Shown here one piece after another: positions 1,939-16,142 of a stretch of 64,000 nucleotides of DNA. Source of the DNA: a phage. How positions within the stretch are numbered: position 1 is the first letter of the stretch; each line of letters begins with the position of its first letter. The notes under the pieces were generated by a model. The model saw only the letters and a program-made list of their open reading frames with translations. It ran no database searches and was not told the DNA's origin. The stretch lies in sequence record PZ053912.1. One strand, written 5' to 3'. The position numbers and the translations under genes were made by a program.

Positions 1939-1984
1939 AACGTTTTATTCATTCCACTTAGTTGATATGGATATAGTACCATTA

Positions 1985-2200
1985 TCAGTGTTGATTGTAA
2001 ATGGCTTTTTCTACGCTTTTAACGTAATTGATGTAGTCTTCCTGTTCGTACGAGTTTAAGGCTAAGAACAAAGCTAATAGTTCATTATAGACTAAAGCCT
2101 CACGCTCCCGTTCGGCCTCTACTACGTTCTGAAGATTATGACTCATATTGTTCCTTATAACTATCAATGTAGTCCTGTATGTCAAAGAATGACATTTCAT
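1985..2200 (-). CDS. hypothetical small protein (asiA-motA interval; start may be internal ATG at 2146)
   Basis: ORF track; AAGGAAC SD precedes ATG at 2146; position equivalent to T4 asiA.1/arn region. Confidence 0.4.
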   Translation of the reverse strand: MKCHSLTYRTTLIVIRNNMSHNLQNVVEAEREREALVYNELLALFLALNSYEQEDYINYVKSVEKAIYNQH

Positions 2201-2522
2201 ATTCTAGGACATTAAGAGCCCGTTCTTCAGTATAGTCGGAACCAAAGACGATAGTGATTTCACCAGGCTTCATGTGATTGAAATCAACACTAAAAGGAAT
2301 ACGAGAACAGACTTCATCTTCCATATCTACGATAACACTACGACACACTTCTCGGTTAACCTGATAAAGCTCTGCAAGTTCTTCGCATCGAATAACAAGT
2401 TCAGTGGCAGGATTTTCTTTGATTTTAGTAAGCATAGTCTTTACCCTTATGTTTTTGTTTGCGTTTAGATTGAAGTTCTGATTTCTTCTTGTCCTTATGG
2501 ACGGAAGCCTTATTGAAATCAT
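2136..2522 (-). CDS. hypothetical protein (asiA-motA interval)
   Basis: ORF track; ATGA start/stop overlap with upstream gene at 2519-2522. Confidence 0.5.
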   Translation of the reverse strand: MISIRLPSIRTRRNQNFNLNANKNIRVKTMLTKIKENPATELVIRCEELAELYQVNREVCRSVIVDMEDEVCSRIPFSVDFNHMKPGEITIVFGSDYTEERALNVLEYEMSFFDIQDYIDSYKEQYES

Positions 2523-2737
2523 GTTTTGCTACAAGATTGTTCATAATGCTTTATAACCTCGTTTAAACATTTACTAGTGAAAGAAAACTTTTTAGCCACA
2601 GAACATTCGATAATGTGCTCTTTCAAATCTTTAGAGTCAGTATAACCCATCTCAGTAATAAAGCGGCGAATTAAAGCTTTATTCTTATCATTAACAGAAT
2701 TAAAATAATCTGCTTTAGAATCAATTATTCTCATCAT
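2519..2737 (-). CDS. hypothetical protein
   Basis: ORF track, ATG start, co-oriented packed early gene. Confidence 0.45.
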   Translation of the reverse strand: MMRIIDSKADYFNSVNDKNKALIRRFITEMGYTDSKDLKEHIIECSVAKKFSFTSKCLNEVIKHYEQSCSKT

Positions 2738-3002
2738 CTAATTTCCTTAATTGATATTGCAACGAGCTAATAATTTCTTCGTTCATTTTAATATACATGT
2801 CACGCAAGAAAGGTTTTAACCCATCACGAATAATTGCTAACGTATCACCTTTACATAAATTAACCAAATAAGGATGGTCTAAAGCATCCCAACCAGGCTG
2901 ATTAGCATACATACCATAATTTTCTTCCATCATAGCATTCAGGCGTTTGATATGATTAATGTGGGCTTCAATAGCATCAATCTGGAGTTGTTTAAGATTC
3001 AT
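2721..3002 (-). CDS. hypothetical protein (size and position compatible with arn-region ORF)
   Basis: ORF track 93 aa; TAATG overlap with upstream gene at 3002. Confidence 0.45.
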   Translation of the reverse strand: MNLKQLQIDAIEAHINHIKRLNAMMEENYGMYANQPGWDALDHPYLVNLCKGDTLAIIRDGLKPFLRDMYIKMNEEIISSLQYQLRKLDDENN

Positions 3003-3463
3003 TAGTAAAGGTCCTCAGAGTAAAGTTCTTTTTCATTACCACCACGTTCAATACGTACTTGTCCAGCGTAAGTTGCAATAATCATTGCTTCTTCACGTGT
3101 CCAGTAATTAGAGTATTGATCAATAAAGCCTTGGTCGTCGCCACAAACTTGCTGCGAGACTAATTGAGGACCAACTATATCAAGTACTTCAGCCATATCT
3201 TTAGAGTAATGACGAGCACCTGGAATAATAAGAGTTCGTCCATCTTTTAATTTAAAACGATTAGCTGCACAGACAATTCGTCGTTGGTACTTTTGGTTTT
3301 CATCCCAATACAGAGTCTGCCAACAGATTTCAGGAACTTCATCTAAAACATTTTGTTCTGTATATTCACCGCCGTAAGAAGCTAATTTAGCAGCCAGACT
3401 TTCCGGAGTCTCACGCGACAAAGCTTTATCTAACAGAGCTAAACGTTCTTTAAAAGTTTTCAT
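3002..3463 (-). CDS. hypothetical protein
   Basis: ORF track 153 aa; tightly packed with neighbours. Confidence 0.5.
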
Positions 3464-3789
3464 TTAAACCATCCTTTAATACGTTGCCAAATAGATTTTT
3501 GTGCTTGTTTATTTACACCAATCGAACGAATAACCGGTTGTGACTGCTGATATTCTTTATAATCTTCTTTATAGATTTCGTAAGCTGCATCAACAAATGA
3601 ACTGATCGCTGCCATGTAGTTTTTACGAAGGCCAAATGGCGCGTCATTATTTTCACGAATAACCGTATATTGGCCTGCTTTAATCTTTACAATTGTCCCT
3701 AAATAAGCCCCGTGGTACCAAATATCCCATCCTTCCTGAGTAGGTTCTGCACATTTACGAAGTTCGTTAATAATATTCAGCTTATTCAT
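3460..3789 (-). CDS. hypothetical protein (motA.1-like position)
   Basis: ORF track 109 aa; ATGA overlap with upstream gene. Confidence 0.5.
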
Positions 3790-3799
3790 TATGTATTCC

Positions 3800-4432
3800 T
3801 CACAGTACGTTAGTTACAAGGGTAATGATTTCTTTGGACACATTAGGGAAGTCAATGTAAGTATATTTACCACCGATCTTAATCTTAACATCATTTTCAA
3901 GAGAAGTAAACAGCTTTGATTCAGTTTCTGACATGTTGTATGCAAAGATTCTAAGAGAACCATCTCGACGAATTTCTATCTGACGAATACCTAGAACTCG
4001 TTTTGCAAATCGAACTTCCAAGTTACTACGGTTTTCACCGATTTCTTTAACTTCAACTTTATCTTTAATATTTTCAAAAACAAAGTTTGCTAATTCATGC
4101 ATTTCAGGAGTAACTCCACGTGCTTTTCTAGTGTTACGTTTCTGAAGAAGTTCTGGAGCATTTTCTTGGGCAAAGAGGTCTGCAGCTTTTTGGATAATAT
4201 CCATTGCTTCGCCTGTTGCTATAAGTCCATCACCAGATTTTTCGACTAAACCTTTCTTAATCAATACACCAATGTTAGAGTTAACAACCGATGCATTGTA
4301 TTCCGCTTCCAGAGCTTCACGGACATTGGCAGCAGTGGTGAAGTTGTTCTTAATGATATAAACCATTATTGCAGCAGTTTTTTCATTCAGAGCGTTTTCG
4401 GAAGCTTTGATGATGTAAGCAACTTTAGACAT
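3800..4432 (-). CDS. motA: MotA, activator of middle transcription
   Basis: 210 aa; MSKVAYIIKAS..NSNIGVLIKKGLVEKSGDGLI..ENAPELL matches T4 MotA (211 aa); synteny asiA-motA-52. Confidence 0.9.
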   Translation of the reverse strand: MSKVAYIIKASENALNEKTAAIMVYIIKNNFTTAANVREALEAEYNASVVNSNIGVLIKKGLVEKSGDGLIATGEAMDIIQKAADLFAQENAPELLQKRNTRKARGVTPEMHELANFVFENIKDKVEVKEIGENRSNLEVRFAKRVLGIRQIEIRRDGSLRIFAYNMSETESKLFTSLENDVKIKIGGKYTYIDFPNVSKEIITLVTNVL

Positions 4433-4470
4433 TTTATTTCTCCAATTTGGTTGTTTTGTTTTGATAGGTC

Positions 4471-4500
4471 TATAATATCATGTTTGAAGCACATGTAAAC
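4471..4500 (-). promoter_or_regulatory. early sigma70-type promoter upstream of motA (minus strand GTTTACA-N17-TATTAT)
   Basis: Read from sequence; member of repeated ttgataggtctataat cassette family. Confidence 0.5.
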
Positions 4501-4509
4501 TGTTTTGTG

Positions 4510-4543
4510 AGAAAAAAATGCACAAAAGGGAGCCGAAGCTCCC
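4510..4543 (-). terminator. CUUCGG hairpin plus U-run downstream of gene 52
   Basis: gggagccgaagctccc followed (minus sense) by U-rich tract. Confidence 0.55.
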
Positions 4544-4619
4544 TAATCATGTTTGTCCAACCAATACAGCCAAATCACTAGTGCAGCTATTGCACCTAGA
4601 AATCCTAAGGCTAGGGCAC

Positions 4620-5945
4620 TCAAAGAGCCTCCAAGTCTTTAGTGTACTCTGTCACAACATCAGTAGACTTCCAATACTCATTTTCTTCTTTCTTAGCTTT
4701 AGCTTCTTCTGCTAGTTTACGTGCTTCATCGGAAGTGATATGGAAGATGTTAAGACCTACCAGTTTATCGACATGTTCTTTATACATTTCGATTTGTGCT
4801 AGCTCTTCAGTCAAAGCTTTACGAGTCTTGCCCTGAATCACAATTTCGCCACTGATAACTTTTTTGATGAAGTGTGCCTTAGCAAAAGCAAGTTTAAATG
4901 CTTTTTCAGATTCAAGGATTTTGTTGTCAATACGTTTCTGAACGTAAGTCTTACGGACTTCAACAAAATCTTTGATTAAGTCCACTACGTTATCGTAGAC
5001 AGCTAATTTACCCTTTTCATTAATCACTGTGATGTTTTGTGAACGACGTTCGATGAGACTAAAATCTTTCATGATTTTTTCATGACGTAGCTCTTCATCA
5101 TCAGGAAGCGAGTACTCTTTACGGAACTTCACCTTAAACCCAAAGCCGTGTTCACCGCAATCATCTTCCCATGAGATTAGACCTTTGTCTTCCAACGGGT
5201 CAAGAACCTTACTCACATACGTTTCACGGTCGAATTTATATGGGATTTCAGTTATCTGCATTTGAGTGCGAGATGTGAACTTATATGTTCCGTGAATCTC
5301 ATAACGCCCATCAACTTCATGCACTTCACCACGGAATTCCGGGAATTCAACTTTTGGTTTAGTGACATTTTTACCTTGAAGAGCTTGTAATACAGCCTTT
5401 TTGACTGATTTAAAACTATGAGGCAGAATATTTGTTGCGTAACCGGTTGCAATACCAGAGACGCCATTCAAAAGAACTGTCGGAATAATAGGAAGATAGA
5501 ATTTTGGTGGAACGTGTTCTTTATCTTCATGAGCTGGAGCATATTCAGTATCTTTATATACGTTATAGAAATTTTTACTTACACGAGCAAAAATATAACG
5601 AGATGCTGCAGCTTTTTGAACTGTTCGAGAACCAAAGTTGCCTTGGCCATCTAACAGTGGATAGTTGTTGTTCCATGTGTTAGCCATCAATGCACCTGCA
5701 TCTTGTGCAGAAGATTCACCATGGTGATAACCTAAATCTGCAACACCGCCTGCAATTGACGCAAGTTTATGAAATTTTTCTTTATTACCACGAGCCAAAT
5801 CTAACACACGATGAACCACAAAACGTTGAACCGGCTTAAATCCATCAATCATGTTTGGGATTGCACGGTTTTCAACGGTGTACATCGCATATGCTAAGGC
5901 TTCGTTATCAATAATACTTTTTAGATTACGAGAATTTAATTGCAT
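4620..5945 (-). CDS. 52: DNA topoisomerase II medium subunit gp52 (GyrA-like)
   Basis: 441 aa (T4 gp52 442 aa); MQLNSRNLKSIIDNEALAYAMYTVENRAIP..; position after motA as in T4. Confidence 0.9.
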   Translation of the reverse strand: MQLNSRNLKSIIDNEALAYAMYTVENRAIPNMIDGFKPVQRFVVHRVLDLARGNKEKFHKLASIAGGVADLGYHHGESSAQDAGALMANTWNNNYPLLDGQGNFGSRTVQKAAASRYIFARVSKNFYNVYKDTEYAPAHEDKEHVPPKFYLPIIPTVLLNGVSGIATGYATNILPHSFKSVKKAVLQALQGKNVTKPKVEFPEFRGEVHEVDGRYEIHGTYKFTSRTQMQITEIPYKFDRETYVSKVLDPLEDKGLISWEDDCGEHGFGFKVKFRKEYSLPDDEELRHEKIMKDFSLIERRSQNITVINEKGKLAVYDNVVDLIKDFVEVRKTYVQKRIDNKILESEKAFKLAFAKAHFIKKVISGEIVIQGKTRKALTEELAQIEMYKEHVDKLVGLNIFHITSDEARKLAEEAKAKKEENEYWKSTDVVTEYTKDLEAL

Positions 5946-5949
5946 ATTT

Positions 5950-6090
5950 TCACCATATTAATGAACGAATAGCCATTATAATATCTGAAATGAAAAGCAC
6001 TACTTGGATTAGTCCAAACATCACACCATAGTACAGAACCGTAAGCAACAACAAGAGCCCGAAGGCTCCTGCTAAGATTTTCTTAATCAT
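5950..6090 (-). CDS. small hydrophobic membrane protein (46 aa; T4 ac/stp-region analogue)
   Basis: Manual translation MIKKILAGAFGLLLLLTVLYYGVMFGLIQVVLFISDIIMAIRSLIW; below ORF-track size cutoff; ATGA overlap with next small ORF. Confidence 0.4.
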   Translation of the reverse strand: MIKKILAGAFGLLLLLTVLYYGVMFGLIQVVLFISDIIMAIRSLIW

Positions 6091-6236
6091 TGCTCGCCTT
6101 TTAATACGTTAAGAAGAGCTAAGACCGCTAAGGTACCTTGTGACACAGCCTGTTGAAATACTGTTGTTTCGCCTGTAACTAAAGTGTTAACGAATAAAAA
6201 CGACCAACACAGCAATGCAATAATCCATGCTACCAT
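6087..6236 (-). CDS. small hydrophobic protein (49 aa)
   Basis: Manual translation MVAWIIALLCWSFLFVNTLVTGETTVFQQAVSQGTLAVLALLNVLKGEQ; GAGGT SD upstream. Confidence 0.4.
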   Translation of the reverse strand: MVAWIIALLCWSFLFVNTLVTGETTVFQQAVSQGTLAVLALLNVLKGEQ

Positions 6237-6288
6237 TTTAATTACCTCAAAAATAAATTAAAGGCCTAACTTAATAGGCCTATATAAA

Positions 6289-6735
6289 TTAGTAACTCTG
6301 CAGAATGAATTTGAAATTATCGGCCAGAAGACGGTTCATTTCAGTGAGTGTTTGATATTCTGATGTATGATTGCGAGTGAATGCCAGAGCCAATTGACCT
6401 TTACCATAACCAGTAGTCAGTGGTTTCATGTTCTTAGCTGCAACAAAGATTACATCATATTCAATATTGTTAGTGCCCATGGTACGGGCTAGTTGCGAAC
6501 GGCCTTGACGAATGTGAGAAAGAATTGCATCCAACCCTTGTTTAGAACGTTGACGTCCTACAAAGAATCGTGCTGCTACTTGTCGCCAGTCAGATGAACC
6601 TTTAACAAAGAAGTAAAAACCTTCACGAGAACGAAACTCTTTAGAAACTTCAGAACCGTATTCGCCATTACGAACTACTGCAACAACTTCACCGCCAACT
6701 GCCAGAAGGTCTTTACGAGTTAAATATTTGGACAT
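6289..6735 (-). CDS. ndd: nucleoid disruption protein Ndd
   Basis: 148 aa; motifs [69 protein letters not shown] resemble T4 Ndd; position between 52 and rIIB. Confidence 0.7.
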
Positions 6736-9373: not shown

Positions 9374-11587
9374 TTATTTGGCCGCTTCCACGGCCTTCAT
9401 GAATTTAACGATTTGAGCGACCTGTTCTTTGGAAAGAGTACCACGTCGTCCCATGTATTCTGACACAATATGATAATTGGTTTCGAATTCAATAACCATT
9501 TTATCATCATTATCGTAAGCATTATCTTTAAGCTTATCGAAAATTTTAGCACACAATTCTAACTTCTTATTCAGGTCTGTATTAGTAGCACCTGCGAATC
9601 GATTCCATCCCCAACGATTATTTACTGTTGAGAGTTTTGCAAAGTCTTTACTGATTTCTTTGTTCTTAGAGCTAAAATACTTACTAAGGAAGTTAAGCTC
9701 TTCGTTACGAGTAATATGATTCAAATAAGGCTGTGCTCTACGACTTGGTGATACATACTCATCATAATCCACTTTATCAATTAGCGTAATATAGTCATTA
9801 ATTGATTTTTCGAACAAGCATTCTACTTCACCAAGTTTACGAACTTTCTTAGCAATCTGTGGACGAACTACAGTGAACTCTTTAATACCTGACAAATCAG
9901 CAATACGGGTCAAGAAATTGGAGTCATAGTTCAACCAACCTTTATCTGCGTCAAGACATTCAGCATTAGAACGATTACGAACTATAGCATAACCTTGGAT
10001 TTCATCTGCTTCACTCGCTGGAATAAAGAGATCTTCTGATACCCAAACGTCGTTTTCATTCTTAAAGAATCGATGAGCACTTGGCGATTTAGGACGAGGC
10101 TCATTAGTCCGTTTCCTGACTTCAATCCATGGCTTAACGATTTGTAAAAGCTCTGAAGTCTTGTACATGTTAATGTTGTCGCCATCAAAGATAACTTTAA
10201 GGCGTTCCAGAAGTTTCATTGCATCTTCGTCTGTAGGGTCAACGAATAGTACACTTTTACCAAAACCGCGTGGAACTTTACCAGTTAATTTAACCTCGTC
10301 TTTAGACATTTCAATTGAATTAAGAGCTCGCATTAATGGAACGCGTCCCTTAACGTCGTCAATAACGATTTCAACATTTTTAATGTTAATGCCAATCAGG
10401 CTGTTAATTGAAATGGTCGATGATGAGCTACCACTTTCACGAATACGACGAAGACGAGGGGATTCAACGATATCATATACGACGCCAAGATTACACCACT
10501 CAGGCCCCATTTTAAAACGTTTGTACAACTCAGAATAAGTTAGTTGTTCTTTAGAGTATTTCAGTGATTCAATATTAGACCCAGCCTTTTCCATGTATTT
10601 ACGAGCGGTATAACCAAGAGAATCAATTTCACGGAACACATGACGTGGGTATTTACAATCAATCCATTTCTTAGAATCTTCAGCGAACAATTTAGCATCG
10701 ATTTCTGCAACGCGTTTATGGATATTTGCTACTGTACGTTTATCAAATGACAATGCTTCACGAGACGGAGCTACGTCTAGTTCACCCATAGGGAATTTAA
10801 TATAAGCTGTGGTGCATCGAGTCATCATCCATGTTTGTTCTTTAATAACACTTCCGATTGGATATACAATACCACCGTAAACAGCCATGATATTACCGCG
10901 TTCACCCCATGGAGCTTCCTTGGCCAAATATACATCGTCAAATTCAGGGAAGTATTTAATATCTTTAACACCACGAACTTCTGCAATATCACCTAGAGGA
11001 CGCATAACATATGCAATTTCGGATGCAAACTTTTCAAAATCTTCCGGGTTAACCGGTACAACTACTTCTACACCCGTACGGTCATCAGGACCCATCTTAT
11101 CTACAAAGGTCGGCTTAATCTGTGGACCTGTGTCATCTTGGTAGATTACGTAACCATGAACTTCACCATTATGATAAGACGTAAGGTTAAACGTATCAGT
11201 ATATGCTAATGGAGCTTTAGAGCCGAGTCCGAATCCACCAATGAAATCGTTACTCGATGTTTTAGTTGAAGCAAAATATGAGTTATAAATTCCTGGCTCT
11301 TCGTCATTACCACGAATAGTGAAATCACTCATACCAGGTCCAAAATCACGAACTACAAAACGTGGGTCTAAACGACCTGGAGCCTGAACAATAAACTTAT
11401 CAGTGCAACCATTAAGAATTTGCCCATCAATACAGTTTGTGATTAATTCACGTACACAAGCCAATTCTTTGTTTGTATAAAGGTCATTAGACAAAATCTT
11501 ATAAACTTTGCTATTGCCTTGAATAGTAAATGCTGTGCTCTTACCGCCTGAACCAATAATCGTTTCTTTAGCCGTTTCAATAATCAT
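9374..11587 (-). CDS. rIIA: rIIA
   Basis: 737 aa (T4 725 aa); MIIETAKETIIGSGGKSTAF..KVYKILSNDLYTNK resembles T4 rIIA; directly upstream of rIIB. Confidence 0.9.
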   Translation of the reverse strand: MIIETAKETIIGSGGKSTAFTIQGNSKVYKILSNDLYTNKELACVRELITNCIDGQILNGCTDKFIVQAPGRLDPRFVVRDFGPGMSDFTIRGNDEEPGIYNSYFASTKTSSNDFIGGFGLGSKAPLAYTDTFNLTSYHNGEVHGYVIYQDDTGPQIKPTFVDKMGPDDRTGVEVVVPVNPEDFEKFASEIAYVMRPLGDIAEVRGVKDIKYFPEFDDVYLAKEAPWGERGNIMAVYGGIVYPIGSVIKEQTWMMTRCTTAYIKFPMGELDVAPSREALSFDKRTVANIHKRVAEIDAKLFAEDSKKWIDCKYPRHVFREIDSLGYTARKYMEKAGSNIESLKYSKEQLTYSELYKRFKMGPEWCNLGVVYDIVESPRLRRIRESGSSSSTISINSLIGINIKNVEIVIDDVKGRVPLMRALNSIEMSKDEVKLTGKVPRGFGKSVLFVDPTDEDAMKLLERLKVIFDGDNINMYKTSELLQIVKPWIEVRKRTNEPRPKSPSAHRFFKNENDVWVSEDLFIPASEADEIQGYAIVRNRSNAECLDADKGWLNYDSNFLTRIADLSGIKEFTVVRPQIAKKVRKLGEVECLFEKSINDYITLIDKVDYDEYVSPSRRAQPYLNHITRNEELNFLSKYFSSKNKEISKDFAKLSTVNNRWGWNRFAGATNTDLNKKLELCAKIFDKLKDNAYDNDDKMVIEFETNYHIVSEYMGRRGTLSKEQVAQIVKFMKAVEAAK

Positions 11588-11599
11588 ATTTTTCTCTCA

Positions 11600-11800
11600 T
11601 CACAAGTTACGTTTAAAAATTTCTGCTACTTCAAGAAGTTCTTCTTTAGTAGCTGTATCGGTTTGTATTTTATATCGAATTTCTTTAAAGCGTTCTTTAA
11701 AGGACTCTGCTGACTCGATATCAAAAAATCTTTGGATAAGCCGGAATTCCCGGAGTACAGCTTTATCAAAAAGTTCCAAGTCCACGTTATATGTTCTCAT
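11600..11800 (-). CDS. rIIA.1: hypothetical protein (rIIA.1 position)
   Basis: ORF track 66 aa, ATG start; synteny. Confidence 0.5.
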   Translation of the reverse strand: MRTYNVDLELFDKAVLREFRLIQRFFDIESAESFKERFKEIRYKIQTDTATKEELLEVAEIFKRNL

Positions 11801-11825
11801 AATATTCTCTTCAGTAGATTCCTAG

Positions 11826-11876
11826 GGCACTATTACTAAAGACCATATAATCTATCATCTTATGTGTAATAGTGCC
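11826..11876. repeat. 11-bp perfect inverted repeat (ggcactattac / gtaatagtgcc) with 29-nt loop
   Basis: Read from sequence; between glycosyltransferase candidate and rIIA.1. Confidence 0.6.
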
Positions 11877-11892
11877 TCAGGCTATTCAGGAT

Positions 11893-12993
11893 TTACGCTG
11901 TGAAGATTTTATCCCACATCGCAACAACTGCATCTCGGTTATACTTCTTCCATACTGCTTCAGCACGTTTAACTCGAGCTTCGTATGTGTCAGTGAATTC
12001 TAATACAGCTTTTGTGTAAAGCGCAACTACTTCTTTCTTAGGAGTAGAGGAATCAATTTCTACACGCACAGTATCTGGGTCGTATTCGAATGTCGCATGA
12101 GGATAATCCTTAAAAACTAACTGGATTACAGGGACACCTTTAGAGATAGCTTCAATAGAACTATTCTCTACTGTACCTGTGTCAGGACACGTATTAATAA
12201 GTGCTTTAGCTGTTTTAAGACGTTCCATGATTTCACTGTGTGGAGCATCAATAATAACAGGATATTTAGCTGGTGGTGCCCATTTGCTTGGACAGTATCC
12301 TACACCATTTTCGCCTAGTGCTTTAATCGCTTCAAGAGCAACATCAGTACGACGCATTTTAGTGTCATAACGTTGTGCACTAATAATCAGATCAGTCGCC
12401 GGAAGAACTTCAGGTTTCTCATTCAAACAAATAACCGGATAATCTTCGGCTTCAAACAATGGATTTGCTCGCCAATAATCATAATCAATTTTGTCAGTCA
12501 GAGCTGAAGTCATATGGCAATATTTACGTTCAAATTCACGGAAGGCTTTAGTAGGAGCATAACTCTTACCACCATTCTTATGAATTTGAATAGTCTGGTC
12601 CCAAATTTGAACAATGCCACGAGATACCGGTTCAAATGGTGTTGCCATAAAATTCTTATGAACTTTAGAGAGACCTGCGTCTTTAATTGCCTGAACGGTT
12701 AGTTTAGTCGGTTCCATAGTAACAACAAAATCGTATTCATGGATGCCGGCTAGTTCAACAATCTTACGAGCCATAGTATAACTCATACCTAGACTGAATT
12801 TAGTCAGATGACCAACAGGATGGTGTGTAACTTTCCAGTCACCAAACGTGTCATTATCAAAGCCGATATAATCAATATCAGCACCGATGGACACAAGATA
12901 TTTCAACACATTTAAATGTACTGCTTCAAGGCCACCTTGTACACGGTCGGGATTAAATGGGACTGCGCGAGATGGGATAAACATAACTTTCAT
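11893..12993 (-). CDS. putative GT-B fold glycosyltransferase (candidate hmC-DNA pentosyl/arabinosyltransferase)
   Basis: 366 aa; C-terminal VENSSIEAISKGVPVI resembles GT4/GT-B nucleotide-sugar binding motif (E..EA...G.PV); occupies the locus where T4 has gene 60; T4 a-gt and b-gt loci lack a glucosyltransferase here. Confidence 0.55.
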   Translation of the reverse strand: MKVMFIPSRAVPFNPDRVQGGLEAVHLNVLKYLVSIGADIDYIGFDNDTFGDWKVTHHPVGHLTKFSLGMSYTMARKIVELAGIHEYDFVVTMEPTKLTVQAIKDAGLSKVHKNFMATPFEPVSRGIVQIWDQTIQIHKNGGKSYAPTKAFREFERKYCHMTSALTDKIDYDYWRANPLFEAEDYPVICLNEKPEVLPATDLIISAQRYDTKMRRTDVALEAIKALGENGVGYCPSKWAPPAKYPVIIDAPHSEIMERLKTAKALINTCPDTGTVENSSIEAISKGVPVIQLVFKDYPHATFEYDPDTVRVEIDSSTPKKEVVALYTKAVLEFTDTYEARVKRAEAVWKKYNRDAVVAMWDKIFTA

Positions 12994-13009
12994 AATTAAG
13001 CCTTATTAA

Positions 13010-13036
13010 AATTAAAATGAAGCTCCCGAAGGAGCT
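13010..13036 (-). terminator. CUUCGG hairpin (agctcccgaaggagct) downstream of HNH gene
   Basis: Read from sequence. Confidence 0.45.
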
Positions 13037-13833
13037 TAGGACATCCAACACATTTTATAACCTTTGCAGGTTCTGTTAGGATTATTTAATGCTTTCAATA
13101 TATTAGAAGACCCTATATCTAAATACTCCCTTAATTCATAAAGATAGTTAAAATCAATAGTTTCACCTGTTTTTACACTTGTGATTCTTATAGGCCTTCT
13201 TTCATATTTAGATTTATACAACTCTCTAGTCTTAGCTTTAGTTTCTTCTGACCTAGGAGTGTATGGTTTAAATCCTTTTGTTTTAAATGTTTCCATTCTT
13301 GATTTAGTTATTTTATCCTGGTGTTCTTTTGTTTTTACAGGTGCTTTTCGCCCATTCTCCCAAGATAACTTGTTGGCCTGTATTATTTTATCTATTGCTT
13401 CTTGCGTATGAGTTTTACCATAAAATGGATTTAATTCGCCTATACGTTGTGAAGCAATATGTGACATTAATTCTCTTGTTGCTTTAGTATGTTTTTTACC
13501 TTTAAATGGGTTGCCATTTTTAGCAATCCATTCTTTCATAAATCTAGAGTGCTCTTTAGAGAATTCTTGTTTAAGCCAATCATAATCTCTAGAATTTCTA
13601 GCTCCCATGTAAAAAGCTCTAATAGCCATAAGCATAGAACGGTTCTTATGAATTTTATAAAGCAATAAATGGGCGATAAAATGCTCTCTAGGGGTCATTT
13701 TAACTAGATTTGATTTATCATTACTCCCACCCATAGATTTAGGCAAAATATGGTGAGTTTCAGTATAATTAGGAATAGTGCTGCGGTTTTTAGCCGCAGC
13801 GATAAGTTTATCATAAATTTTACGGTAATTCAT
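13036..13833 (-). CDS. free-standing HNH homing endonuclease with NUMOD3-like repeats (Mob-type)
   Basis: HHILPKSMGGSNDKSNLVKMTPREHFIAH HNH motif; repeated NPFKGKKHT / NPFYGKTHT motifs; ATG at 13833 overlapping gp39 stop (TAATG); track start 13848 is TTG. Confidence 0.8.
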   Translation of the reverse strand: MNYRKIYDKLIAAAKNRSTIPNYTETHHILPKSMGGSNDKSNLVKMTPREHFIAHLLLYKIHKNRSMLMAIRAFYMGARNSRDYDWLKQEFSKEHSRFMKEWIAKNGNPFKGKKHTKATRELMSHIASQRIGELNPFYGKTHTQEAIDKIIQANKLSWENGRKAPVKTKEHQDKITKSRMETFKTKGFKPYTPRSEETKAKTRELYKSKYERRPIRITSVKTGETIDFNYLYELREYLDIGSSNILKALNNPNRTCKGYKMCWMS

Positions 13834-15653
13834 TATCCTAGCATCCAATCTTTACGGAGTTCAGGGTCGTTACCCATGAGCATTTCAAATAGTTCTTTCC
13901 AATTTTCAGGAAGTTTAACTACGTCGTACACAGGGTTTTGAATCATTTCTTTATATTCATCCCGCTGAAGTGAGCCCAATCCCTTGATGTATCGAATACT
14001 ATGCTTAGGCAGTGTATCTTTAGCTTCTTCATACTCAGCTACAGTATAAAACCATTTTTGAGTTTTGCCAATTTGTGCAATAATTACAGGCGTTTTAACA
14101 AAGCGAATACGTCCTTGTTCAAACAATTCAGGCCAATTACTAAAGAAAGCAAGCAAAGCCGGATAGATACTTCCAAGACCGTCATGATCGGCATCGGTCA
14201 TAATTGCAATATTACGATAGTTCGTATTCTCTGCCTTTTCACCAAGAATAAGACCTGTGATAGCACAGATATCGAAGAGCTCTTTGTTCTTCATCATATC
14301 GGCATATGACATACCCCAGCTATTCATCACCTTACCACGTAATGGGAATCCGCCGTGTAGTTCACGGTCACGAACATCAATGAGATAACCAATTGCCGAA
14401 TCACCTTCTGTTAAAAACAATGTCGTATCTGCATCTTTACCACATTGGTTAGCTTTAATATGCTTATGAACCTTAGCTTTAGTTGCCTTTTTAGCTGCTT
14501 TAGTTTCTGCAGCCTTTTCTGCTGCCAATTTACGAGCTAATGCTGCTTCAACAATAGGCATAATCAAGGCTTCGTTTTTAAGAAGTGCCTGAGCAATTTT
14601 CTTAGCATCTAATTGGATATGATTACGAATATCACCATACGTTGACGTTAAACGTTCTTTAGTCTGAGAATCAAAACGCATGTTGCTCATGTCTCTAATA
14701 AACATCAACATTGTGAGACATTCTTTAACACGAGCTTTAGTGACTTCAATACCCTTATATTTCTTTTTAATACCGGGCAAAAGATGTTCGCAGATATCAT
14801 CCATTACACATTCAACATGATGACCACCATTTTTAGTATGGATGTTATTCACATAAGTTAAATGACGGAAGCCGTCTGGTGATGTTGTGAATGCTATAGA
14901 GACTTTATCATTTTCTTGAATGATGTTATCTTCGCCAAATTGTTTAGCAAATCGTTTAAAATTACCATCAACTTTTTTACCATTAAATGTGAACTTGATA
15001 TCAGGATAAACGACTGCCAATGTTTGAAGTCGGTCTAAAGTAATATCTAAATAAATTTGAGATAAATTATGCTCTTCAAATGAAGAGAAATCAGGAGTGA
15101 AGATTACTTTGGTGCCTTTACCTTTAGATTTCTTAGAAGACCATGATTTGTTTTCCATTCCGTTTGAACAGTTAACAGTGATTTCATTTTCGCCATCTGA
15201 CGTGATGCCTGTAAACAACGTAGAGAAGATATTAGTTAAACTACTCCCGACGCCGTTCATACCACCAGTCTTGCGTTCAGAGTCATCACCAAAATTACCA
15301 CCAGCCTTTGGAATAGTCCAGGCTGCTACAGGCCCAGGAATTTGTTCACCTGTTTGGTCGGTGACCATTGCTTGAGGAATACCACGTCCGTTATCTTCCA
15401 CCGAAACTTGATTATTTTTAATTTGCACATCAATTTTATTTGCAAACTTAAATGATGTACGAATAGCTTCATCAACCGAGTTGTCAATAATCTCATCGAT
15501 TAATTTAATCAGACCAGGAACATATTCAACTTGTTGATATTTACCAAACAAAAAACGCTCGTGGGCTTCTTTGGCCGAAGAACCAATATACATGCCACTG
15601 CGTTTCTTAATATGTTCTACATCTGACAATACCTTAATTTCATTTTTAATCAT
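13833..15653 (-). CDS. 39: DNA topoisomerase II large (ATPase, GyrB-like) subunit gp39, uninterrupted 606 aa form
   Basis: MIKNEIKVLSDVEHIKKRSGMYIGS..LIDEIIDNSVDEAIR GHKL ATPase; 606 aa equals T4 gp39+gp60 fused, so no separate gene 60. Confidence 0.9.
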   Translation of the reverse strand: MIKNEIKVLSDVEHIKKRSGMYIGSSAKEAHERFLFGKYQQVEYVPGLIKLIDEIIDNSVDEAIRTSFKFANKIDVQIKNNQVSVEDNGRGIPQAMVTDQTGEQIPGPVAAWTIPKAGGNFGDDSERKTGGMNGVGSSLTNIFSTLFTGITSDGENEITVNCSNGMENKSWSSKKSKGKGTKVIFTPDFSSFEEHNLSQIYLDITLDRLQTLAVVYPDIKFTFNGKKVDGNFKRFAKQFGEDNIIQENDKVSIAFTTSPDGFRHLTYVNNIHTKNGGHHVECVMDDICEHLLPGIKKKYKGIEVTKARVKECLTMLMFIRDMSNMRFDSQTKERLTSTYGDIRNHIQLDAKKIAQALLKNEALIMPIVEAALARKLAAEKAAETKAAKKATKAKVHKHIKANQCGKDADTTLFLTEGDSAIGYLIDVRDRELHGGFPLRGKVMNSWGMSYADMMKNKELFDICAITGLILGEKAENTNYRNIAIMTDADHDGLGSIYPALLAFFSNWPELFEQGRIRFVKTPVIIAQIGKTQKWFYTVAEYEEAKDTLPKHSIRYIKGLGSLQRDEYKEMIQNPVYDVVKLPENWKELFEMLMGNDPELRKDWMLG

Positions 15654-15693: not shown

Positions 15694-15716
15694 TAAAGCA
15701 AAAAGGGCCGAAGCCC
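15694..15716 (-). terminator. CUUCGG hairpin (gggccgaagccc) plus U-run
   Basis: Read from sequence. Confidence 0.45.
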
Positions 15717-16142
15717 TTATTTAAATTTAATTTTCTGAAGTGCATCAATTGCAGCCAAACGCCCTTGTTCACTTTTAACTGTAATGACCACATCGCCTGA
15801 TACGATCACCGAACCATCAACAAATTCTATAGAGCCTTTTTTGAAATCGACAGCTGTATCTGGTTCCGGAACTTCTTCAAAAAATTTAAATTCTGCACCA
15901 TAAAGCAGAATATCACCTTGCATACTATGAATAGTTCGGCCATAATCGCCTACGGCTTCTACAGCAATCACCGAAACGCCGTAACCAATCATCTCTTCCG
16001 CAATAAAATCTTTGGACAATAAAGTAGTATGCAGATTAGTATTAAGACGTTTACCAGTCGTATTAAGAATTCTCAAGAAATTATCTTCCTGTCCTTTGAT
16101 AATACGATATTTCTTACCAACTTCAAAACCTTTAAAAGCCAT
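15717..16142 (-). CDS. hypothetical protein (141 aa; size and position compatible with T4 goF)
   Basis: ORF track, ATG start at 16142; immediately downstream of 39. Confidence 0.4.
   Translation of the reverse strand: MAFKGFEVGKKYRIIKGQEDNFLRILNTTGKRLNTNLHTTLLSKDFIAEEMIGYGVSVIAVEAVGDYGRTIHSMQGDILLYGAEFKFFEEVPEPDTAVDFKKGSIEFVDGSVIVSGDVVITVKSEQGRLAAIDALQKIKFK

Follow-up and report, generated by a model that had tools for sequence, protein, structure and literature searches.

In bacteriophage T4 the gene for the large subunit of DNA topoisomerase II is split into genes 39 and 60, and this split has been ascribed to the MobA element (Manning & Atkins, bioRxiv 10.1101/2022.08.31.505936; review PMC2988022), which is located in the Toprim domain (amino acids (aa) 466-491) and is associated with C- and N-terminal extensions (CTE/NTE) and a 50-nucleotide (nt) bypass (Bonocora 2011; Manning & Atkins 2022). 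T4 also bears MobE, a free-standing HNH endonuclease gene localised among conserved genes, between nrdA and nrdB; the idea that Mob and Seg nucleases are coupled to the genes preceding them, as mobE would be to nrdA, has already been discussed (PMC2988022). Here we describe an HNH/NUMOD3 open reading frame (ORF) that follows an unsplit gene 39 in a 64,000 nt stretch of phage DNA (PZ053912.1), referred to in its whole length as the window. This ORF is very probably a free-standing Mob-type HNH homing endonuclease gene, inserted in the last gene 39 codons of a Mosigvirus and spread by homing.

In the window, as in T4, a Mob-type HNH nuclease is tied to the topoisomerase large-subunit gene, the topoisomerase ORF preceding it is overlapped at its end by the nuclease ORF, and the element brings a diverged copy of host sequence that alters the C-terminus of the upstream product. 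In contrast to MobA, the window cassette was found at codon 604/605 of gene 39, the gene is unsplit, there is no CTE/NTE extension beyond 2 residues, and neither a Toprim insertion nor a 50-nt bypass cassette was present. The C-terminal DNA-binding region of the window nuclease is only distantly related to that of MobA, and the immunity proposed here would come from a substituted gene tail instead of a bypass insert. The window gene resembles MobE in being a free-standing HNH gene among conserved genes which overlaps the upstream stop codon and for which coupling has been proposed (PMC2988022), and it shares with MobE and the Seg/Mob endonucleases of intronless homing its polymorphism among relatives and its spread with co-conversion of flanking markers. 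It differs from them in its host gene and target, and in having captured the last codons, the stop codon and the terminator of its host. I-HmuI and I-TevIII have the same order of an N-terminal HNH, NUMOD3 repeats and a C-terminal helix-turn-helix; those enzymes are intron-encoded, whereas the window nuclease is a separate ORF past the stop codon of a gp39 that contains neither intron nor intein.

Insertion site at the 3'-end of gene 39

The window locus was 98.9% identical to that of Shigella phage phi25-307, which places it in the genus Mosigvirus (RB69-like Tevenvirinae). All the features described here are on the minus strand, where the gene order is gene 39 (15653..13833), the HNH/NUMOD3 ORF (13833..13036, 265 aa), a 366-aa ORF, rIIA.1 and rIIA. 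The junction reads ...TGG ATG CTA GGA TAA TG AAT TAC..., and the stop codon of gp39 (TAA, 13835..13833) has 1 nt in common with the start codon of the HNH ORF (ATG, 13833..13831). The resulting TAATG (13831..13835) was identical in all seven HNH-bearing loci examined.

Gene 39 of HNH-less Mosigviruses ends in ...CGTAAAGAATGGATG TCC TAA, followed by a terminator hairpin, and that of the window ends in ...CGTAAAGATTGGATG CTA GGA TAA TG...; the HNH ORF in turn ends in ...ATGTGT TGGATG TCC TAA, followed by a hairpin identical to that of the HNH-less Mosigviruses. Comparison of these junctions showed that the insert is bounded by a 7-bp direct repeat, TTGGATG, with its upstream copy at 13842..13848 and its downstream copy at 13048..13042. 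The gp39 C-terminus was altered by the insert, WMLG* replacing WMS*, and a remnant of the native tail (TGGATGTCCTAA, 13036..13047), which takes in the downstream repeat copy, now forms the last codons and the stop of the HNH ORF. This remnant matches exactly the end of gp39 in ST0, JK45 and RB69. Similarly, the native gene 39 terminator hairpin (AAGCUCCUUCGGGAGCUU and then a U-rich stretch, 13020..13037), which lies directly 3' of gp39 in HNH-less phages, is now 3' of the HNH ORF. Because the relatives of the nuclease end in ...AYGFKWKY(A/V)x*, the ...KGYKMCWMS* end of the window protein is a fusion to the host tail.

Gene 39 itself is one uninterrupted ORF encoding a GyrB-like large subunit of 606 aa with matches to HATPase_c, DNA_gyraseB, Toprim and TOPRIM_C. 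It was colinear with gp39 of RB69 (94.5% aa identity) and T6 (81.6%), with a single 1-residue gap in the alignment. Residues 1-474 were covered by T4 gp39 and 473-604 by T4 gp60, and the point of the T4 39/60 split (codon ~474, nt ~14238) is intact. As the two T4 proteins together align contiguously along it, the window gp39 contains no split, coding gap, frameshift or bypass. Gene 39 was also unsplit in RB69, ST0, T6, phage 132 and about 500 Tequatrovirus records; this is the norm among T4 relatives and unremarkable, T4 being the exception.

The HNH ORF and its family

The RefSeq copies of the HNH ORF already carry the annotation 'homing endonuclease'. The protein gave a NUMOD3 match of 36.5 bits, which exceeds the cutoff, and fell in PHROG 655 ('homing endonuclease', E = 1.2e-56); its match to the Pfam HNH profile was just below threshold (19.0 bits vs a cutoff of 21.4). 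Alignments localised the catalytic motif to residues 25-55 (E-T-HH-ILPKSMGGSNDKSN-LVKMTPREH-FIAH; ETHHILPKSMGGSNDKSNLVKMTPREHFIAH; 13669..13761), where it aligned with the motifs of a group II intron maturase and McrA, as in other members of the HNH (beta-beta-alpha-Me) nuclease superfamily. E25, H27, H28 and N42 were invariant in 6/6 aligned homologues, and H51 and H55 among four full-length relatives. A profile match placed the NUMOD3 DNA-binding repeats at residues ~113-151 (13381..13497). They are followed by a C-terminal I-HmuI/NUMOD-like helix-turn-helix region (..SSNILKALNNPNRTCKGYKM.., 13048..13161) that only gene-39-associated relatives share. With its intact motif and the few aa changes among its copies, the protein is likely to be an active nuclease.

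An earlier, sequence-only reading of this DNA had proposed an uninterrupted gp39 with neither gene 60 nor bypass, a gp39 stop codon overlapping the HNH start, and an HNH/NUMOD3 endonuclease, and the alignments, the conserved 1-nt overlap and the profile matches given above agree with it on these three points. It overlooked that the nuclease gene lies within the gene 39 tail and reuses the last codons, stop and terminator of gene 39. The TTG at 13848, from which the ORF program begins the HNH ORF, is less likely to be the start than the ATG at 13833, because T4 MobA and the homologues from Thanatos-1 and contigs L021 and L022 begin with (M/V)N(Y/F)xK(I/V)Y.

T4 MobA, whose copy in the T4 reference bears a frameshift, shared 56% identity with the N-terminal 45 residues, and in tblastn searches features annotated as mobB, mobD and MobE matched the N-terminal part at 35-49% identity. 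An N-terminal HNH motif, NUMOD3 repeats and kinship to MobA-E are together those of a Mob-type sequence. Among the PDB sequences only the HNH motif found matches, all of them weak (E = 0.08-0.5), and the protein as a whole had no structural homologue; in the phage collection, beyond the 28 records that bear the ORF, nothing exceeded ~36% identity over at least 77% of its length.

In a search of 5.8 billion proteins, full-length relatives were found in just three clusters (P0002, P0003 and P0004; 41-45% identity), and all of these are located directly 3' of an unsplit gene 39 of 606-607 aa (or on a truncated contig) in other T4-like contigs. The homologue in contig L018 overlaps gp39 through GTGA and has a remnant gp39 tail behind the nuclease, and that of L022 overlaps the gp39 stop through ATGA. 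The L021 homologue has no overlap with gp39 and is preceded by a 34-nt spacer (L021 3967-4003) with a hairpin containing GGAGG. Relatives devoid of the C-terminal region (P0005, P0006 and 79 IMG/VR loci) do not adjoin gene 39, and a scan of IMG/VR with a 4-sequence profile gave 80 loci, among which only phiE142 was full-length or beside gene 39, with no new members. The window ORF and its 41-45% relatives thus appear to form a Mob lineage specific for the gene 39 tail. This lineage is distinct from MobA, since the Toprim insertion, the split, the CTE/NTE and the bypass of MobA are all lacking.

Other arrangements were seen in the same contigs and in related phages. The L021 spacer hairpin, GGAGGATA-TTTC-TATCCTCC, holds the only GGAGG and resembles the hairpins that sequester the ribosome-binding site of T4 intron endonucleases. 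Shewanella phage Thanatos-1 (L013), a distant arabinosyl-DNA phage, bears a full-length, 31%-identical HNH homologue in a MobA-like split 39/60 arrangement, in which an HNH gene of 270 aa divides the topoisomerase large-subunit gene (1969-4826) into parts of 511 aa and 83 aa and has a 4-nt overlap with the upstream one. Escherichia phage AV109 (L003) has an extra 227-aa NUMOD3 ORF (5650-6333, minus strand), which is likely to encode a further homing endonuclease; it lies immediately 5' of gene 39, whose start it overlaps by 8 nt. As the 5' ~1.1 kb of the AV109 gene 39 is also just 60-80% identical to other Mosigviruses, this gene seems to be a mosaic with nuclease genes on either side. The metagenomic contig L018 carries an Endonuclease VII-type ORF (1144-1851) in the upstream position that matches the extra ORF of AV109.

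Polymorphism and variant gene 39 tails

The HNH ORF was found in 28 phage records with 98.6-99.9% nt identity. It was present in about 20 of the 151 Mosigvirus-like records, defined as those spanning at least 80% of the query region, and most of the others lacked exactly ~800 bp. More than 100 Mosigvirus records that are nearly identical in other respects lacked it, as did about 500 Tequatrovirus records. Such a polymorphism, with the gene present or absent at one fixed site in closely related phages and with precise junctions, characterises homing genes.

The HNH-bearing allele was 97-100% identical to that of HNH-less Mosigviruses along most of gene 39, except in two clusters of differences. 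Cluster A (13950..13977), just past the conserved KGLGS motif, has GLGSL-QRDEYK for EKSEYR; ~12 of its 28 nt differ from the standard Mosigvirus and Tequatrovirus alleles, and its flanks are ~99% identical. Cluster B (13836..13880) corresponds to a variant of the last 15 codons of gene 39 (..LMGNDPELRKDWMLG), identical in HNH-bearing loci of both genera and unlike the standard tails of Mosigvirus (..GDDSELRKEWMS) and Tequatrovirus (..GDNADLRKEWMSQ). Both clusters were carried by 7/7 HNH-bearing loci examined, and cluster A is a candidate target or immunity region.

Some HNH-less phages have tails of the cassette type. LF82-4 and OLB35 bear both clusters and a tail ending in ..WMLG*, followed by a spacer of 16 nt (TTGATAGATGTCCTAA) similar to a native tail that has degraded, and in NHEP36 the two clusters are followed by TGGATG|TCCTAA, the sequence expected from a deletion between the TTGGATG repeats. 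These tails may be loss products, resistant alleles or the ancestral background. We searched for a third lineage that could have donated the variant gene 39 tail and found none; the tail also circulates in HNH-less Mosigviruses.

Transfer between Mosigvirus and Tequatrovirus

RB69 has been described as unable to recombine with T4 and other RB isolates (PMC6024577). Nevertheless, the Tequatrovirus phages fPS-90, F1, BYEP01 and FL12 bear a matching HNH ORF at the matching site, followed directly by rIIA.1 with no ORF003c, the RB69 name for the 366-aa ORF of the window. In these four phages the HNH ORF and the preceding ~360-415 nt of gene 39 were ~100% identical to the window, whereas the 5' three quarters of gene 39 were just 55-85% identical. 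The co-converted tract shared with fPS-90, F1 and BYEP01 spans 12945..14232 at ~100% identity, and beyond it the identity was only 55-85%. The upstream crossover was localised at 14248-14233 in fPS-90, F1 and BYEP01 and at 14213-14191 in FL12, and in AV109, a divergent Mosigvirus, the start of the tract is at ~14544.

The downstream side of the tract is the same in the Tequatrovirus carriers. The HNH ORF is followed there by the terminator hairpin of Mosigvirus and by the initial 49 nt of its ORF003c, which are joined through a 9/10-nt microhomology (AATCCTGACC/AATGCTGACC) to the leftover gp39 tail of the recipient (TTCGTAAAGAATGGATGAGCCAGTAG). The join yields a chimeric 24-codon ORF, MKVMFIPSRAVPFNPDLRKEWMSQ* (fPS-90, L005 2480-2560; also L006, L007 and L008), in which the first 16 ORF003c codons are fused in frame with the last 8 codons of the own gp39, and which is preceded by the ORF003c ribosome-binding region. 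This ORF is probably a meaningless scar, yet it is a diagnostic marker of the transfer. The cassette moved from Mosigvirus into Tequatrovirus with co-conversion of flanking host sequence, as homing genes do, and these scars were left behind. The common join with differing upstream crossovers points to a single illegitimate downstream event followed by spread into several Tequatrovirus backgrounds.

The leftover tail has survived next to a nuclease gene that is intact, which makes it improbable that the last 27 nt of gene 39 contain the whole target; cluster A together with the first half of cluster B would be the best candidates for the target site. The region at 14248-14233 cannot confer immunity, as HNH-bearing and HNH-less Mosigvirus alleles are identical there. 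This crossover (codons ~469-474) shares the stretch GGTGAAAAGGC with the 5' boundary of T4 MobA, within 16 nt. Two explanations for this coincidence, a MobA-bearing recipient and a target common with MobA, were rejected as unnecessary, because the longest local identity runs suffice; moreover, the recipients resemble T4 in their 5' parts no more than they resemble the unsplit T6 or phage 132.

Proposed homing and its alternative

In the mechanism that we propose, the mobile unit would consist of the HNH ORF plus a diverged sequence that replaces the final ~150 nt of gene 39. During mixed infection the nuclease would nick or cut the 3' part of HNH-less gene 39 alleles, and repair of the break by copying the HNH-bearing genome would convert the tail and install the HNH ORF ('intronless homing'). 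The carrier genome may be protected because its own gene 39 tail differs, so that immunity could be conferred by the variant tail.

T-even phages recombine very actively, and the two Tequatrovirus crossovers fell on the two longest local runs of identity between Mosigvirus and Tequatrovirus (16 and 23 nt), as they would in any homologous exchange. Together with the variant gene 39 tails, which occur in several recombinant forms in HNH-less phages, and with two copies that seem to be frameshifted, this could suggest that the HNH gene is a passive passenger or a decaying relic, its patchiness and mosaics being products of ordinary homologous or illegitimate recombination. We regard this explanation as unlikely. 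The ORF and its catalytic motif were intact in 26/28 records and the differences are mostly synonymous, copies differing by 9-11 nt having merely 1-3 aa changes; the barrier of 55-85% identity between the genera was crossed in just one ~1.3-kb patch centred on the nuclease gene; and the 41-45% relatives occupy the matching position in four divergent phage lineages. The intact ORF and motif, the single patch across the barrier and the recurrent position favour a long-maintained, site-specific homing.

Some observations nevertheless weigh against homing as we describe it. The two apparently frameshifted copies are those of AV118 and ECO111 5-P. The HNH ORF is absent from phages with clusters A and B (LF82-4, OLB35 and NHEP36) or with cluster A only (JM17); therefore the cassette-type tail may be one of the usual Mosigvirus alleles, hitch-hiking with the nuclease gene, and not a determinant of immunity. 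Furthermore, the nuclease activity and the position of the target site are both things that we infer from sequence.

Expression of the HNH ORF

The most likely mode of expression of the HNH ORF would be low-level translation of the gene 39 mRNA through termination-reinitiation, because the ORF has no promoter of its own, the native terminator is located downstream and its start codon lies on the gp39 stop. The T4 late promoter sequence TATAAATA was found 3 times in the 64 kb and was absent from the HNH strand for about 10 kb upstream; TATAAAGA, at ~13955 within cluster A, matches it at 7/8 positions and is not claimed as a promoter. The sigma-70 scan gave 10 matches vs 11.9 expected, which is the chance level. 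No terminator was called at the gp39/HNH junction, and the nearest call upstream of the native hairpin was ~420 nt inside gene 39. A stop/start overlap with no intervening promoter or terminator is the arrangement of a coupled pair, and translational coupling of gp39 and the HNH ORF is plausible, although not distinctive, as overlaps are common in the genome.

The HNH ORF may instead be translated independently of gp39, with ribosomes loading de novo at the AGGA that precedes its ATG and with the overlap reflecting nothing but T-even compaction, and this we consider a real possibility that falls somewhat short of an even chance. The RNA at the junction (13790-13930) had an unremarkable structure (minimum free energy of -24 kcal/mol, z = -0.76 vs shuffles), so that we propose no regulatory hairpin, and in a sister genome 17 of ~72 same-strand junctions overlap (24%), three sharing a single base, among them goF/cef at a distance of 3 kb. 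These common overlaps, the AGGA and the L021 homologue, with its 34-nt spacer and its own GGAGG in place of an overlap, also count against coupling. On the other hand, AGGA, a weak match, is the sole Shine-Dalgarno-like element before the HNH ATG, its spacing is only 2 nt, and in FL12 it is replaced by ACGA and the ORF is still intact. Two of the three distant homologues overlap gp39 (GTGA and ATGA) despite unrelated surroundings, and MobA ORFs overlap the upstream topoisomerase ORF by 1-20 nt (bioRxiv 10.1101/2022.08.31.505936).

Outside the window locus, phage phi25-307 (L024) bears a further annotated homing endonuclease gene (10270-10953), which is flanked by gene 59, for the helicase loader, and gene 33, for the late transcription regulator, and overlaps these neighbours by 8 nt and 4 nt; start/stop overlap with essential neighbours thus recurs for nuclease genes of this genome.

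The downstream ORF003c and other neighbouring features

The sequence-only reading had also pointed to a glycosyltransferase candidate immediately downstream of the nuclease gene. The 366-aa ORF (12993..11893) is indeed there and is the homologue of RB69 ORF003c; ORF003c/gp3 has been predicted to be a GT-B DNA arabinosyltransferase (PMC6024577; PMC13326640). The window ORF had no Pfam match and fell in PHROG 8302, where the function is not known. It is located outside the mobile unit, save for its first 49 nt, and those 49 nt did enter Tequatrovirus by co-conversion, so that DNA beside the cassette can in principle be carried with it. It had been further suggested that the nuclease may have helped to mobilise or fix the adjacent ORF003c module. 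However, ORF003c occupies the same place in Mosigviruses with and without HNH, being present at matching coordinates in the HNH-less RB69, ST0, LF82-4, OLB35, NHEP36 and JM17. Moreover, every Tequatrovirus HNH carrier examined has only the first 49 nt and not the gene, and the other arabinosylation genes of RB69-like genomes are elsewhere (gp45-gp55; PMC13326640). Mobilisation or fixation of ORF003c by the nuclease is thus highly improbable.

In Shigella phage JK45 (L004; 1894-2304 and 2397-3497) the 3' part of ORF003c is partially duplicated in tandem, and 11785-12285 of the window is matched twice. The JK45 record gives its taxonomy as Tequatrovirus, yet its locus is 97-98% Mosigvirus-like. 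Further downstream in the window are rIIA.1 (11800..11600) and rIIA (11587..9374). On the other side of the locus, between an upstream 141-aa ORF and gene 39, a GC-rich hairpin (AAGGGCCGAAGCCCTT, 15703-15718) with T-runs on both sides was scored as terminator-like on either strand.

Significance

The locus is a tidy natural case of intronless homing, a well-known class, and provides no new principle; it likewise adds nothing new on translational bypass or DNA glycosylation. We found no published description of a Mob lineage associated with the gene 39 tail. It seems rather likely that the HNH ORF belongs to a Mob lineage specialised for the 3'-end of gene 39, a second independent coloniser of this gene besides MobA, which does not split the gene but replaces its tail, captures its stop and terminator and has crossed the barrier between RB69 and T4. 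The locus shows that Mob nucleases have colonised gene 39 at two separate sites; if the above reading is true, the genetic isolation of RB69 from T4 was crossed leaving a datable scar, the chimeric 24-codon ORF, in Tequatrovirus genomes.

The alleles described here (standard tail, cluster A only, clusters A and B, clusters A and B with HNH, and the Tequatrovirus scar) constitute a natural set for mapping target and immunity. The movement of the nuclease cassette between Mosigvirus and Tequatrovirus is documented by these genomes, and, as a marker, the 3' third of gene 39 is mosaic, which calls for caution in phage engineering and taxonomy.

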